Shown: positions 33,094 through 45,927 of the stretch, piece after piece
How the letters are laid out: every line of letters starts with the position of its first letter
Position numbering within the stretch: position 1 is the stretch's first letter
NCBI GenBank assembly: GCA_022843305.1
Contig: JALHNX010000003.1
Location: 4,272-68,271 of the forward strand
Length of the DNA stretch: 64,000 bases
Origin: Pyrinomonadaceae bacterium
GTDB lineage: Bacteria; Acidobacteriota; Blastocatellia; Pyrinomonadales; Pyrinomonadaceae
Direction: 5' to 3'
Translations under genes and position numbers: made by a program
The notes under the pieces: model-generated
Told to the model about the DNA's origin: nothing
Databases searched by the model: none
Seen by the model: only the letters and a program-made list of their open reading frames with translations

Positions 33094-34446
33094 ATGAAAA
33101 ATCTATTCCGTTTGACGTTTCTTTTCAGCACGTTGTTAATGTCTTTAAGTTTTGCTTTTGCCCAAAATAAATCTAACGAACCGCTTCCGAAAATGCCGAA
33201 ACTTCTTTCACAGCGCGAGCAGGCGGAGGTGCGCGAGATGTGGCTCGGAAAACGGCTCGACACGCTGCTTTTGCCGATGATGCGAAAGCATAATGTTTCG
33301 ATGTGGATTGTTGTCAACGAAGAATTTAACAGCGATCCGGCGACGGAATATCTGGTGCCTCCGATGCCGATTGTCGGAAGCCGCGATTTTTTTATTTTTG
33401 TTGACACAGGCGAAAAAAAATTGGAAAAGATTGCGATTGTCCGTTATGCCGAAGAACGCCTGAAAAATCATTACGAGATGATAAGCGTTTCGCGTGATAA
33501 ATTGGGCGAAACTCTGCGCTCGACAATTGAGAAATACAATCCGAAAACAATTGCTTTGAACATCGGCGGAACGCGCGGACAGCAAAACGGTCTTTCACAC
33601 GCTTCGTATAAAATGCTGGCGGAAACTTTGGGTGCGGATGCGGAGAAAAAATTCGTTTCGGCGGCAAATTTTCTGACCGAATTTTTCGATACACGCATTG
33701 CGGAAGAACTCGAACATTACCGCACGGCGGTTCTGGTAACGGATATTTTGACGCGCCGTGCATTTTCAAACGAAGTTATTATACCGGGAAAAACAACTGT
33801 CGGCGATGTTCGTTGGTGGTTGATTCAGCAAGTCAATAATTTAGGTTTGACGATTTGGTTTCAGCCCGATTTGCGCGTTCAAAGACAAGCAAAATCAACC
33901 GCTGTGAATCAGCAATTTTTGTCGGTTGCCGATGAATCAACGGTTTTGGAACGCGGCGATTTGATTCACGTTGATTTCGGTTTGAACTATATGGGACTTT
34001 CAACCGATTGGCAGAAACACGCTTATATTCTGAAAAAAGGCGAGCGCGATGCGCCGCAAGGTTTGAAAAACGCGCTAAAAAATACGAATCGTTTGCAAGA
34101 CGTTCTCTTCGGCATTGCGCGTGTCGGAATGACCGGCGCAGAAGTTTACGACGCGACGATGGCGCAGATGAAAAAGGAAAATATCGAAGCGATGATTTAT
34201 TCGCATCCGATCGGCACACACGGACACGGACTCGGTGCTTCGATTGATTTCCGCCGCGCCATCGGCGTTTCGCCCGATAGAATCCGGCTCGATTCATATA
34301 TGTCAATTGAATTGAATACTTCGACTGTTATTCCCGAATGGAACAATCAAAAAGTAACGATTATGGCTGAAGACGATGCGTTTATGACCGAAAAAGGCTA
34401 CGAATTTTTCCGCCCGCGCCAGACCGAATTTTATTTGATCAGGTAA
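33094..34446 (+). CDS. Secreted M24-family metallopeptidase (Xaa-Pro peptidase-like)
   Basis: ATG at 33094 gives the signal [24 protein letters not shown]. Pita-bread motifs [20 protein letters not shown] and MAEDDAF. Confidence 0.85.
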
Positions 34447-34447
34447 A

Positions 34448-34560
34448 GGAACGCCGTCATCCTGACGGCTAAGGTCGTGTAAACGACGTATAAAATTTGA
34501 ATATTATAAACGCTTGTATGAACGCTTGGGCGTTCATTGCCGTCAGGATGACGGCGTTCC
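34448..34560. repeat. Palindromic intergenic element, family B copy 1 (22-nt terminal inverted repeats)
   Basis: GGAACGCCGTCATCCTGACGGC (34448-34469) and GCCGTCAGGATGACGGCGTTCC (34539-34560) are perfect complements. Internal small hairpins are present. The second copy is at 45765-45895. Confidence 0.85.
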
Positions 34561-34564
34561 GAAA

Positions 34565-35830
34565 ATGATACCGATTTCCGAAGCCATAAAAATCATTGAG
34601 CGCGAAAGTTTCGTGCTTCCGCCGGAAACGATTGATTTAGAAGATTCGATCGGGCGCGTTCTGGCGGAAAATATCAAAGCCGATATGGATTTGCCGCCGT
34701 TCGACCGTTCGCAGATGGACGGTTTCGCGGTGCGTTCGGACGACACGAAAAACGCGCCTGTTAATTTAAGAATTATCGGCGAATCGGTGGCGGGCAAAGG
34801 TTTCGACCAAAAAATGAAATCGGGCGAAGCCGTGCGAATTATGACCGGCGCACGCGTTCCCGACGGCGCGGACACAGTGCAAAAAGTTGAAGTAACAACA
34901 GAAAAAGACGGTTTTGTCGAGATTTTAGAAACTGCGAAACCGGCACAGAACATCAATAAATTCGCGTCGGAAATCAAAATAGGAACGAAAGTTTTTGCGA
35001 AAGGTGAGATTATCAACGAGCAGATGATTGCCGCGTTCGCATCGTTCGGTTATGCGAAATTGAAAGTTTTTCAAAAACCGCAGGTTTCGATATTTTCGAC
35101 CGGCAGCGAGATCGTCGAAATCGGCGAAACGCCGCAGAAAGACCAGATTCGCAATTCAAATTCGATGATGCTCAAAATTTTAGCCGAACGCGCGGGCGCC
35201 AATGCTGAAATTCTGCCGCAGGTTCACGACGATTTTAAAACGCTCAAAACAGCAATCGCCAAAGCTGTCGGTATTAAGGCAAAAGGCAAAAGGCAAAAGG
35301 CAAAATCTGATGAAAAGCAATCGCAAATCAAAAATCGCAAATCGCAAATCCTCATCATCACGGGCGGCGTTTCCGTGGGCGATTACGATTTTACGAAACC
35401 CGTTCTGCGCGAACTCGGCGCGGAGATTTTCTTTGAAAAAGTTTCATTAAAACCCGGCAAACCGGCGGTTTTTGCGCGATTAAATGACGTTTTGATTTTC
35501 GGTCTGCCCGGAAATCCGGTTTCGGTCGCGGTAACATTTTATCTTTTTGCGAGATACGCGATCTGGCGGGCGCAAGCGGCGAAAAACTGCGAGTTAAAAC
35601 GCGGTTTTGCGGTTTGTTCGGACAAAATAAAAGGCGCGAAAGAGCGCGATTGTTATCTGCCGGTTTCGCTTTCAACCAATAAAAAAGGTGAATTAATTAT
35701 CGAATCCCTGCGCTTTTCGGGTTCGTCGAATTTCATCGCCTTTTCCCGCGCCGACGCACTGGTTTTCATTCCGCAGGGCAAAAATCTGGAGAAAGACGAC
35801 GTTGCCGAGATTTTATTTCTTTTAAATTAG
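34565..35830 (+). CDS. moeA: Molybdopterin molybdotransferase
   Basis: ATG at 34565 (MIPISEAIKII). MoeA blocks PPFDRSQMDGFAV, RIMTGARVP, ITGGVSVGDYDF, KPGKP, GLPGNPVS. Confidence 0.9.
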   Translation: MIPISEAIKIIERESFVLPPETIDLEDSIGRVLAENIKADMDLPPFDRSQMDGFAVRSDDTKNAPVNLRIIGESVAGKGFDQKMKSGEAVRIMTGARVPDGADTVQKVEVTTEKDGFVEILETAKPAQNINKFASEIKIGTKVFAKGEIINEQMIAAFASFGYAKLKVFQKPQVSIFSTGSEIVEIGETPQKDQIRNSNSMMLKILAERAGANAEILPQVHDDFKTLKTAIAKAVGIKAKGKRQKAKSDEKQSQIKNRKSQILIITGGVSVGDYDFTKPVLRELGAEIFFEKVSLKPGKPAVFARLNDVLIFGLPGNPVSVAVTFYLFARYAIWRAQAAKNCELKRGFAVCSDKIKGAKERDCYLPVSLSTNKKGELIIESLRFSGSSNFIAFSRADALVFIPQGKNLEKDDVAEILFLLN

Positions 35831-35942: not shown

Positions 35943-36677
35943 ATGCAAAGTCCCGTCGCGCTGGCGCACGAAGCGATTCACGAAACGGTCGAAAACATTC
36001 TGAAATCGGCAGAACGCGGAAAAATTCTCGACGTTCCGGCGGGCGAAGGCGCGCTGGCTTTGCGTCTGAAAAATCTCGGTTTTACAGTTTTTTGCTGTGA
36101 TCTATACACCGAAATTTTCAAACTTTCGGAGACGGAAATAAAACGCGGGAATCTGGACGCGAAACTTCCTTATGACGATAAATCTTTCGATTATCTGGTT
36201 TGCGTCGAAGGATTGGAACATATCGAAAATCCGGCGAACGCGATGCGCGAATTTGCGCGGATCTTAAAAGAAAACGGCACATTGATCGTCAGCGTGCCGA
36301 ACATTATGAATATCGAAGAGCGTCTGAAATGGCTTTTTAACGGCTACACGTCGCATTTCAAACCTTTGTCGAGCGAGGCTTTGGCGGAAATTTCCAAAGA
36401 ATTCGGCGGAATGGAAGAAATCGCGCTCCACGTTAATCCGATCGGCTATTCGGAAGTTCGCTATTTGCTGGAGAAAAACGGTTTTTCATTGCAAAAAACA
36501 TATCTCGACAAACCGAAAAAAAATTCGTGGGCGTATTTTCCGCTCGCCGCTTTGATCAAGCTCGCGGCGCGTTTCAGTTCCGCGAACAAAAAAAAGTCGC
36601 GCTGGACAGATGAACTCAATTCCGACGAGGTTTTGCTCGGCGGAAACACTTTGATTTTTGAAGCAAAGAAGAATTAA
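35943..36677 (+). CDS. Class I SAM-dependent methyltransferase
   Basis: Motif I ILDVPAGEGALALRL, post-I CCDL, FDYLVCVEGLEHIENP. Confidence 0.85.
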   Translation: MQSPVALAHEAIHETVENILKSAERGKILDVPAGEGALALRLKNLGFTVFCCDLYTEIFKLSETEIKRGNLDAKLPYDDKSFDYLVCVEGLEHIENPANAMREFARILKENGTLIVSVPNIMNIEERLKWLFNGYTSHFKPLSSEALAEISKEFGGMEEIALHVNPIGYSEVRYLLEKNGFSLQKTYLDKPKKNSWAYFPLAALIKLAARFSSANKKKSRWTDELNSDEVLLGGNTLIFEAKKN

Positions 36678-36686
36678 ATTTTTCTG

Positions 36687-36765
36687 CCCACGAAACACAC
36701 GAAAGATACGAAAATAAGACTAAAGATTGCTTTGATTTTTTGTTTATTTCGTGTGTTTCGTGGGC
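36687..36765. repeat. Palindromic intergenic element, family A copy 2
   Basis: GCCCACGAAACACACGAAA (36687-36705) and TTTCGTGTGTTTCGTGGGC (36747-36765) are perfect 19-nt arms. Confidence 0.85.
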
Positions 36766-36776
36766 AAAAAACAAAT

Positions 36777-44518: not shown

Positions 44519-44591
44519 GCCCACGAAACACACGAAAAATACGAAATAATTTTTGACTTTATTTTTCGTTTCTTTCGTGTGTTTCGTGGGC
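44519..44591. repeat. Palindromic intergenic element, family A copy 3
   Basis: GCCCACGAAACACACGAAAAATACGAAA...TTTCGTTTCTTTCGTGTGTTTCGTGGGC. It starts 6 nt after the uvrA stop and ends 10 nt before the next ATG. Confidence 0.85.
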
Positions 44592-44601
44592 AAAAATAAA
44601 T

Positions 44602-45723
44602 ATGGATTTAGAAACCATCAAAACACCGTCGCTGATCGTTGATTTTCAAAGAATGAAACGCAATGCCGGGCAAATTACAGCTCGCGCCAAAGCGTTAAAT
44701 GTCGCTTTGCGTCCGCACGTTAAAACGCATCGCTGTCTTGAGATTGCGCGGCTTCAAACCGAAAACAACTTCGGCGGAATTATGGTTTCGACGCTTTCGG
44801 AAGCGCATTTTTTCGCTGAAAACGGGTTTTCGGATATAACTTACGGTGTGCCAATCGAGCGCGGAAAATTTGCGGAAGTAATTGCGATTTCCAAAACTAT
44901 TGAACGTTTTGCAGTTTTGACGACGGACGCGGAAACGATTGAAGGATTAAACAACGCGGCGAAACACGAAAACGCGAAACTCGGTGTTTTTCTGAAAGTT
45001 GATGTCGGTTATCATCGCTGCGGAGTCGAACCGCACACGAACGAAGCGTTTGAAATTCCCCGAAAAATCAGCGATTCGACAAACCTCGATTTCGCCGGAA
45101 TTCTGACACACGCCGGACATTCCTATCACGCCGACACGCCCGAAAAACTGCTTGCGGTCGCGCAAGAAGAAAGAAATAAAATGCGCGATCTGGCGGAAGA
45201 ACTTCGCCGAAAAGGAGTTGAAGTTCCAACCGTCAGCATCGGTTCAACGCCGACGATGAGCGCGATTGACAACACGGAAGGCATCACCGAACTGCGCTGC
45301 GGAAACTATATTTTTTACGACGCTTTTCAGGCGACTTTGGGAAGCTGTAATGTTTCCGATTGCGCTTTAACCGTTCTCGCGGCGGTCGTTCACCGGGATT
45401 CGACGCGCCGAAAAATCGTCGTTGACGCAGGCGCGGTCGCCCTTTCCAAAGATCGCGGCGCGGTCGAATTCGACGCGCATTGCGGTTATGGGCGCGTTTA
45501 CGATTTGGCGGGAAACGATTTAGCTTTGCGCGTCGGTTCGCTTTCGCAGGAACACGGCGAGATTTTTGTTGAAGATGAAAAGATTTTTAATAGTTTAAAA
45601 GTCGGCTCGCGCGTTCGAATCTTAGCAAATCATTCTTGTTTAACTGCCTTGCAGCATTCGCATTATCACATTCTCAACGGCGGAAAAATCGTTGACCGCT
45701 GGGAAATCAATCGCGGTTGGTAA
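44602..45723 (+). CDS. PLP-dependent D-threonine aldolase / D-serine dehydratase-like (DSD1 family, alanine-racemase fold)
   Basis: TPSLIVDFQRMKRN, the PLP-lysine context LRPHVKTHRC, and the C-terminal SQEHG...ANHSCLT. Confidence 0.8.
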   Translation: MDLETIKTPSLIVDFQRMKRNAGQITARAKALNVALRPHVKTHRCLEIARLQTENNFGGIMVSTLSEAHFFAENGFSDITYGVPIERGKFAEVIAISKTIERFAVLTTDAETIEGLNNAAKHENAKLGVFLKVDVGYHRCGVEPHTNEAFEIPRKISDSTNLDFAGILTHAGHSYHADTPEKLLAVAQEERNKMRDLAEELRRKGVEVPTVSIGSTPTMSAIDNTEGITELRCGNYIFYDAFQATLGSCNVSDCALTVLAAVVHRDSTRRKIVVDAGAVALSKDRGAVEFDAHCGYGRVYDLAGNDLALRVGSLSQEHGEIFVEDEKIFNSLKVGSRVRILANHSCLTALQHSHYHILNGGKIVDRWEINRGW

Positions 45724-45734
45724 AGAGCTGAAAA

Positions 45735-45916
45735 CGTGAGTATTGGATAAGAAATTTGTCTGACGGAACGCCGTCATCTTGACGGCACACGCCGCGCCGA
45801 GCGGCGTAAAAGCGTTTCATTCAACTTAAAACTTGAAATTAGAGCGAGGATTTTAGCGTTTTTCAAACGCTGTGCCGTCAAGATGACGGCGTTCCTTGCT
45901 TATCCAATACTGACGT
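45735..45916. mobile_element. MITE-like element: 17-bp terminal inverted repeats enclosing family B copy 2, flanked by a 9-bp direct repeat
   Basis: Outer TIRs CGTGAGTATTGGATAAG (45735-45751) and CTTATCCAATACTGACG (45899-45915). Inner arms GGAACGCCGTCATCTTGACGGCACA (45765-45789) and TGTGCCGTCAAGATGACGGCGTTCC (45871-45895). Flanking AGCTGAAAA at 45726-45734 and 45917-45925. No ORF inside. Confidence 0.7.
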
Positions 45917-45927
45917 AGCTGAAAAGT

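Follow-up and report, generated by a model that had tools for sequence, protein, structure and literature searches.

Dispersed intergenic palindromes of a Pyrinomonadaceae genome as probable REPIN-like elements of a GGA[AG]C-footed RAYT system

Associations of REP sequences with RAYT transposases, REPINs, BIMEs and TIRtrons with an Acidobacteria-specific transposase group have already been published (PMC3116915, PMC3337134, PMC3733652, PMC6006769), and the catalytic signature of the class-2 Y1 transposases has been defined (PMC6006769). In a literature search, no publication was found that linked RAYTs to Blastocatellia or Pyrinomonas.

The analysed sequence (the window) is a stretch of 64,000 nucleotides, G000:C3:4272-68271, taken from G000, the assembly of a soil acidobacterium of the Pyrinomonadaceae (5.72 Mb, 322 contigs, 47% G+C). 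Two copies of a palindromic element (family B) are located in the window. The palindromes are very probably REPIN-like, non-autonomous elements mobilised by a dedicated class-2 Y1 (HUH) RAYT, encoded on another contig (G000:C243:5015-5605, 197 aa), and by its sequence features family B appears to be a further REPIN-RAYT type system, of a kind that is already known.

As in the REPIN-RAYT systems (Nunvar 2010; Bertels and Rainey 2011, PMC3116915; 4ER8), the family is built from a short hairpin repeat whose unpaired 5' foot is conserved, found mostly as extragenic inverted doublets in tens of copies and without target duplication; a single-copy class-2 Y1 gene is bracketed by the repeats, and each paralogous transposase has its own repeat type. 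Unlike in those systems, GGA[AG]C stands in place of the GTAG foot (all lineages examined had either GGAAC or GGAGC), each half of the element carries a second hairpin drawn from four interchangeable classes, and the host belongs to the Acidobacteriota. The distribution also differs: family B is patchy among relatives (0/3 same-genus genomes) and its exact arm also occurs in Chloroflexota, whereas the Pseudomonas and enterobacterial systems have been described as vertically inherited. The transposase resembles TnpA-REP subclass 2.4 (Quentin et al. 2018, PMC6006769) in its motifs (NH[IFV]H and YIxNNP), in its length (~194 aa there, 197 aa here) and in being scattered across phyla, and the 'double foot' REPs of that subclass have counterparts in a GGAAC-hairpin-GTTCC unit at G000:C56:27101-27127 and in a Thermoflexus MAG. 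The published foot of subclass 2.4 is, however, GT[AG]G, the transposase being assigned to the subclass by motif, and no REP insertion was seen inside the RAYT gene of G000, only an arm overlapping its 3' end.

The TIRtron/TIRYT systems (Di Nocera et al. 2013, PMC3733652), which include an Acidobacteria-specific group and the Koribacter ORF1552 repeats, likewise have a tyrosine transposase flanked by non-GTAG inverted repeats; some TIRtron repeats are self-complementary or double palindromes, and moderately abundant dimer families occur. TIRYTs are, however, mostly of subclass 2.1 (~238 aa, C-terminal HTH, GGGGWSAS), whereas the RAYT of G000 has 197 aa without the tail and the arms lack the motif. 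The way in which a few hairpin types and linkers are combined as modules, with occasional head-to-tail arrays (G000:C255), recalls the E. coli BIMEs, but the sequences differ and the modules of family B are the second hairpins of a doublet, whereas in BIMEs REP types alternate and are joined by defined linkers. Finally, the shell of the long-type elements described below, with its outer terminal inverted repeats (TIRs) and 8-9-bp target duplication, is like that of bacterial MITEs (Correia/NEMIS, RUP, ERIC, Nezha); the 22-nt arms of family B are, however, internal to this long-type MITE, and the short types are without target duplication.

The features of the two loci were as follows (coordinates of the window):

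34444-34446, plus strand: TAA stop codon of the Peptidase_M24 gene; copy 1 begins 1 nt later
34448-34560, no strand assigned: copy 1, a 113-nt short-type doublet (arm, A hairpin, AT-rich centre, C hairpin, arm) without target duplication
34448-34469, plus strand: left arm of copy 1, one putative REP unit, with foot GGAAC (34448-34452) and hairpin GCCGTCA-TCC-TGACGGC
34472-34489, plus strand: second hairpin of copy 1, A class (stem GTCGT/ACGAC, loop GTAA)
34518-34537, plus strand: second hairpin of copy 1, C class (ATGAACGC-TTGG-GCGTTCAT)
34539-34560, minus strand: right arm of copy 1, a putative REP unit inverted relative to the left arm (exact sequence match)
34565-34567, plus strand: ATG of moeA, 4 nt past copy 1; position 1 of Pfam MoeA_N aligns to residue 2
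45726-45734, plus strand: left target-site duplication (9 bp), AGCTGAAAA (in-register direct repeat)
45735-45751, plus strand: left outer TIR of the ~182-nt long-type MITE-like unit that encloses copy 2 (outer-repeat pairing)
45765-45895, no strand assigned: copy 2, a 131-nt A...B doublet (arms 45765-45786 and 45874-45895; A hairpin 45789-45807; B hairpin 45855-45871)
45899-45916, minus strand: right outer TIR of the same unit (outer-repeat pairing)
45917-45925, plus strand: right target-site duplication, AGCTGAAAA (in-register direct repeat)

The perfect 22-nt arms reported in the earlier note were recovered at exactly the positions and with the sequences given there: GGAACGCCGTCATCCTGACGGC in copy 1 (34448-34469, plus strand, and 34539-34560, minus strand) and GGAACGCCGTCATCTTGACGGC in copy 2 (45765-45786, plus strand, and 45874-45895, minus strand), all four being exact, with 0 arm matches by chance in 100 shuffles. 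Each arm is self-complementary (GCCGTCA-TCY-TGACGGC). Genome-wide, far more than two copies were found, and the palindromes do form a dispersed family: 111 matches to the arm pattern (up to 3 mismatches) were obtained in G000, compared with 0-1 for a reversed control pattern, and the arms make up 46 inverted pairs, most often 129-131 nt long. Most of the arms that looked unpaired either had a diverged partner arm or lay where the contig ended, and the total was estimated at ~55-60 elements and ~110 arms. Gene calls for this fragmented assembly were crude ORF calls (4672 ORFs, 87% coding), by which nearly all family B elements are intergenic, as is usual for the many-copy extragenic palindromes of the REP/REPIN kind; the 46 inverted pairs, with minimum free energy (MFE) folds closed by the 22-bp stem, match the inverted doublets of that kind. 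Approximately 90 of 113 arms were without any mismatch, though loops and centres had diverged. Whole-element identity had a median of 71%, with one young subfamily at 95% or above. An array was observed at G000:C255:5246-5588, where a 106-nt unit made up of arm, A hairpin, centre and B hairpin occurs three times head to tail and a right arm closes the last unit only.

The arm consists of a 5-nt foot, GGA[A/G]C, and a hairpin with a 7-bp stem and a 3-nt loop. Throughout the family, each half-element has the same plan (arm, 1-3 nt, second hairpin), with a variable AT-rich centre between the halves. The second hairpins fall into class A (ACGYCGC/GCGRCGT, often with one G-T pair), class B (AGCGTTT-GAA-AAACGCT, almost invariant), class C (TGAACGC/GCGTTCA) and class D (AGATTGC/GCAATCT); their loops are variable and some of their stem changes are compensated (e.g. 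TGAATGC/GCATTCA, AGATCGC/GCGATCT). Among the doublets with both second hairpins classified, pairings of A and B (14) and of C and D (9) were the most frequent, and A/C and B/D pairings were present as well. Copy 1 is of the A...C type and copy 2 of the A...B type, and the view that their interiors are unrelated could not be maintained, both copies being laid out as arm, second hairpin, AT-rich centre, second hairpin, arm. Per-column conservation was 95% or more in the arm and the second-hairpin stems but not in the loops or the centre. The MFE fold of the whole strand has a 22-bp closing stem and two inner hairpins (RNA, -63 kcal/mol for copy 1 and -74 kcal/mol for copy 2; z about -10, copy 1 z = -10.6). 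Isolated halves fold into local hairpins, as the self-complementarity of the arms had led the earlier note to expect.

The C-to-T change between the left arms of the two copies, matched by a G-to-A change in the right arms, had been read as a compensatory substitution that keeps the long-range pairing. The variable base is indeed C in both arms of copy 1 and T in both arms of copy 2, but across the family all four combinations occur: 45 doublets of G000 were CC in 18 cases, TT in 12, CT in 8 and TC in 7 (30 concordant, 15 discordant; one further doublet has a G), and doublets in other genomes were CC in 24, TT in 18, TC in 9 and CT in 8. Concordance (~69%, where ~50% would be expected under independent draws) is not evidence of selection for pairing, because the copies descend from one another in subfamilies. 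The base itself occupies the third position in the 3-nt loop of each arm's own hairpin. With this base excluded, 0/116 other arm substitutions (33 in G000 and 83 elsewhere) were common to the partner arm. Stem changes were matched within one arm (GCCTTCA/TGAAGGC, GCCGGCA/TGCCGGC, GCCGTCT/AGACGGC, GCCAGCA/TGCTGGC), double stem changes inside an arm keeping the pairing in 35 cases and losing it in 5, and heterodimers exist in which two different hairpins, both intact, stand in one doublet. Uncompensated changes are thus found in further copies, as discordant C/T pairs and as one-arm substitutions, and long-range compensation was rejected on these arm-pair statistics. The C/T difference is best read as a neutral polymorphism of the hairpin loop and not as a compensatory change, and the pattern of substitutions points to the local hairpin as the conserved object, the 22-bp long stem appearing as a by-product of the inverted arrangement.

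With the Pfam Y1_Tnp profile, ten matching genes were found in G000. One of them, the RAYT gene at G000:C243, is matched by the NCBIfam equivalog REP_Tyr_transpos (94 bits, cut-off 80) and has Y1_Tnp (residues 80-172) as its sole Pfam domain. Its best PDB match is the E. coli TnpA-REP 4ER8, with which the HUH (HIH) histidines and the tyrosine of the class-2 Y motif (RYIENNP) align; the class-2 Y1 signature (HUH and Y---NP) is present, as NHIH and YIENNP aligned to HMH and YIYINP of 4ER8. The motifs NHIH and YIxNNP and the length fit class 2, subclass 2.4 of PMC6006769 (an assignment by motif). Upstream of the gene a full doublet ends 9 nt before the ATG, and downstream there are one further full element and one partial element. 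An arm at G000:C243:5589-5608 overlaps the 3' end of the gene and, read in frame 1 (GGA ACG CCG TCA TCC TGA), forms its last five codons (GTPSS) and the stop. At >60% identity this RAYT is the only copy in G000, so that a cognate, single-copy gene flanked by the repeats is present.

Other pairings of transposases and repeats were observed in the same genome. A RAYT paralogue at G000:C60:1935-2797 (L112), 60% identical, is bracketed by doublets of a sister arm, GGAGC-GCAGGCT-GCC-AGCCTGC, which forms approximately eight doublets in G000 and has inner hairpin modules in common with family B. Further Y1_Tnp genes (contigs C168, C25, C8, C4, C78 and C143) each have their own repeated palindrome family; a palindrome stretch with CCGCCTGCGGTAGCGGGCGG, present in ~85 copies in G000, adjoins the Y1 gene at C4:7326-7586. 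At least seven transposase-repeat pairings are held by G000.

Arms were found in 10 of 121 family genomes and in 0/3 same-genus genomes. RAYT orthologues at 72-78% identity were present in G057, G089 and G016, all three of which carry arms directly flanking the RAYT gene; arms also flank the orthologues in MFD04651.bin.1.211, RBC039 (86%) and ERR2431955_maxbin2_3 (70%). The arms flanking orthologues of 70-86% identity are thus identical or near-identical in at least six other genomes. One family genome, G039, had three arms and no RAYT match at E <= 1e-20. Over a wider range, ~40 homologues (42-86% identity; Acidobacteriota, Planctomycetota, Verrucomicrobiota and others) were nearly all flanked on both sides by one build, namely the foot GGA[AG]C, a 7-bp stem beginning with GC and a 3-4-nt loop, with a lineage-specific stem sequence. 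The stems track the RAYT identity classes, which is the lineage-wise hairpin covariation of REPs. By direct counting over 80 RAYT loci, which does not presuppose pairing, a perfect 7-bp hairpin followed GGA[AG]CGC in 123/298 cases, compared with 2/298 when the 3' half was shuffled, and 29 distinct stems were seen. Such a conserved foot with a co-evolving hairpin is the signature of a REP family.

Outside the Acidobacteriota, the exact 22-mer was found on Chloroflexota contigs and on those of other MAGs (L036, L043, L011, L076, L087, L096, L028). The ORFs of these contigs are only 27-67% identical to G000, so the contigs are not mis-binned Pyrinomonadaceae. There the arm takes the form of short heterodimers with a different partner hairpin, of a single 'double-foot' hairpin, or of ~80-nt tandem arrays. 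RAYT homologues were found in 4 of the 5 non-acidobacterial genomes searched but were only 38-54% identical, and in the Thermoflexus MAG fragments of a RAYT gene are flanked by GGAGC-GCCGTCA-TCC-TGACGGC. Horizontal spread of the arm family is likely.

At copy 1, Pfam profiles confirmed Peptidase_M24 and moeA as the flanking genes, and the N-terminus of MoeA, MI(P/T)ISEA, is kept in congeners. As the earlier note had it, copy 1 fills the whole gap between the two genes, from 1 nt past the TAA to 4 nt before the ATG. G002, G062 and G105 lack the 113-nt element, and the stop codon of M24 and the start codon of moeA overlap there as ATGA; an ATGA overlap is also present in two congeners at the locus corresponding to G000:C73:13170. 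From these comparisons, copy 1 appears to be an insertion that split a translationally coupled M24-moeA pair. For the short types, copy 1 included, sharing between the flanks was equal to that of a mismatched-flank control, and the target duplication expected of a DDE-type MITE was not found at the 22-nt arms. Transposition by Y1 enzymes without target duplication is established for IS200/IS605. We infer that the short types fit this route. The foot is immediately preceded by a pyrimidine at 48 of 60 arms, and the bases further 5' are A/T-rich.

Hairpins of other kinds were seen in the congeners at two sites where G000 has a family B element. At the junctions orthologous to G000:C23:12148 and C123:10706, unrelated 65-165-nt hairpins follow the same stop codon in G105, G002 and G062 (L140, L141, L146, L148), and their arms are runs of 7-nt words (GATTTGG, GTGGACA, GTGCAAA). 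A repeat of ~50 nt at L136:195-260 (G000:C123:10194-10259) has dozens of copies at 85-100% identity in all three same-genus genomes, which lack family B.

Copy 2 is flanked by the stop codons of a D-serine-dehydratase-like gene (45721-45723) and of a convergent DUF3368 gene, and its orthologous site was absent from the five relatives searched. It belongs to a subfamily (~40% of all copies) in which A...B elements are nested in units of 174-187 nt with outer 17-19-nt inverted repeats (21 paired cases). In-register direct repeats of 7-10 nt flanked 12 of these 21 long-type copies, giving the outer shell the TIRs and target duplication of a DDE-type MITE, and among the 21 there was no outer element that lacked the inner hairpin arms. 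The long-type subfamily looks like a target-duplicating MITE with a REP doublet as its core, and was probably spread by a DDE transposase, as its flanking repeats suggest. The outer-repeat motif ACGTSAATWYKGGATAAG is widespread (Cyanobacteria, Chloroflexota, Acinetobacter and others). A transposase for the outer repeats was not found; the one pair inspected, 1.5 kb apart on a cyanobacterial contig, encloses an aspartyl-protease-like ORF.

By the crude ORF calls, ~14 of 45 elements start 1-3 nt past the upstream stop codon, and at four or five further elements an ORF enters the arm by 18 nt and ends at its in-frame TGA (GGA ACG CCG TCA TCC TGA). By the same calls, the arm supplies GTPSS and the stop for four other genes (C28:18745, C220:8238, C260:2955, C297:1844). 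In many cases 3-9 nt separate the end of the element from the next ATG, and ~9 elements lie in spacers that measured 15 nt or less before insertion. Positions within 3 nt past a stop make up ~2% of intergenic bases, and spacers of 15 nt or less 0.5%. The bias towards sites right after stop codons is real; it may reflect target choice (TAA-like sites), the survival of harmless insertions, or function. No bias of orientation relative to transcription was found (CD 5 versus DC 4; BA 3 versus AB 1; small numbers).

The sequence of events that would account for the elements is as follows. Each arm would act as a REP unit, with a single-stranded GGAAC foot followed by the 7-bp hairpin and its 3-nt loop, and a REPIN-like element would consist of an AT-rich centre enclosed by two such units in inverted orientation, with a second hairpin after each. 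The local hairpins would fold on single-stranded DNA; the RAYT would recognise hairpin and foot, cut beside the foot, and move or copy the doublet into AT-rich sites without target duplication. Copy 1 would be such a RAYT-mediated insertion, and copy 2 a doublet carried inside a separate MITE with an 8-9-bp target duplication. We infer the catalytic role of the RAYT, the passage through single-stranded DNA and the preference for certain targets, as well as any effects on expression. Two observations go further than this scheme: the stop-codon placement is not explained by the transposase model alone, and the near-invariance of the arms, set against diverged loops and centres, is not predicted by simple recent copying and could reflect host-level selection or repeated homogenisation.

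Both observations bear on the alternative that the palindromes are RNA elements selected by the host, in which a transcribed structure would protect the upstream mRNA, uncouple translation of the neighbour or stall terminating ribosomes, with local and long pairing as the two states of a switch. This is considered unlikely as the main explanation, although it is compatible with an origin through the RAYT (exaptation). It would account for ~18 of 45 elements starting within 3 nt past a stop codon or supplying the stop, where only ~2% of intergenic bases lie that close, for the ~9 elements in short spacers that hold 0.5% of intergenic bases, for arm and inner stems that are conserved while loops and centre drift, and for the strong folds of both copies; unrelated heptamer-word hairpins also occupy the same slot at 2 of the 4 congener junctions examined. 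E. coli REPs located 15 nt or less from a stop codon reportedly lower expression of the upstream gene, as Liang, Rudd and Deutscher are said to have found in 2015. A single transcript, however, could not keep both halves intact, as the G-T pairs of A-type hairpins become A-C mismatches on the opposite strand; in addition, both orientations relative to transcription occur, partner arms with discordant C/T bases are common, and the same-genus genomes are entirely without family B. Neither copy matched an Rfam covariance model at E <= 1, and a known RNA family was rejected on this result. Thus, of the switch proposed in the earlier note, the local hairpins stand; the switch itself is unsupported, there being no Rfam match, both orientations being used, and the conservation being explained by the transposase. 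Sub-threshold Rfam matches of the family A hairpins (window 36677-36772 and 44519-44591) to models of plant and animal miRNA precursors were spurious, arising from long perfect hairpins. A broader proposal, which we hold to be quite improbable, is that the post-stop junction in Pyrinomonadaceae is a dedicated 'hairpin slot', targeted or filled by different repeat systems (the RAYT family and the heptamer-word hairpins), with the arms kept by host-level selection as an intercistronic RNA/DNA structure that sets the expression of operon neighbours.

If the 22-nt arms were instead the TIRs of a deleted DDE-type IS, mobilised in trans and unrelated to the Y1 gene, family B would be an ordinary MITE. 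In favour of this, the 22-nt arms stand inverted at the ends of non-coding elements of 113-133 nt, and the long types, copy 2 included, have outer 17-18-nt inverted repeats with 7-10-nt flanking duplications. These duplications, however, flank the outer repeats and not the 22-nt arms, and the short types, with copy 1 among them, show none above the mismatched-flank control. No DDE transposase lies between GGAACGCCGTCATCYTGACGGC arms anywhere in the data, the gene that they bracket being always the RAYT (at least six genomes), and compensation within an arm is not required of a repeat bound by a transposase as duplex. An ordinary MITE is accordingly a very remote prospect. It is just as improbable that the palindromes are repeated intrinsic transcription terminators or attenuators: GC-rich hairpins do lie downstream of genes, and one terminator-like match was obtained on the minus strand of the left arm of copy 1, but no consistent T-run follows the arms, many copies stand between co-directional genes, 3-9 nt before the next start codon, and the congeners do with an ATGA overlap at the copy 1 junction. 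A simple scan gave no terminator site on the transcribed (plus) strand at copy 1, and on this result, together with the many copies that abut the next start codon, the terminator reading was rejected.

On the preferred reading, that of REPIN-like elements mobilised by their RAYT, the conspicuous intergenic palindromes of G000 would be given an identity, and the apparent 'compensatory' change at the two copies is not to be read as evidence of an RNA switch. The family would represent a new REP-RAYT lineage from the Acidobacteriota, marked by its GGA[AG]C foot and by stems that covary cleanly over ~40 transposase homologues, and its unusual points are the modular, double-hairpin halves and a REP doublet that seems to have been captured and spread in a target-duplicating MITE. 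The bias to positions 1-3 nt after stop codons, the insertions into ATGA pairs and the identical 22-mer in other phyla bear on the target choice of Y1 transposases and on the tolerance of operons to such insertions.
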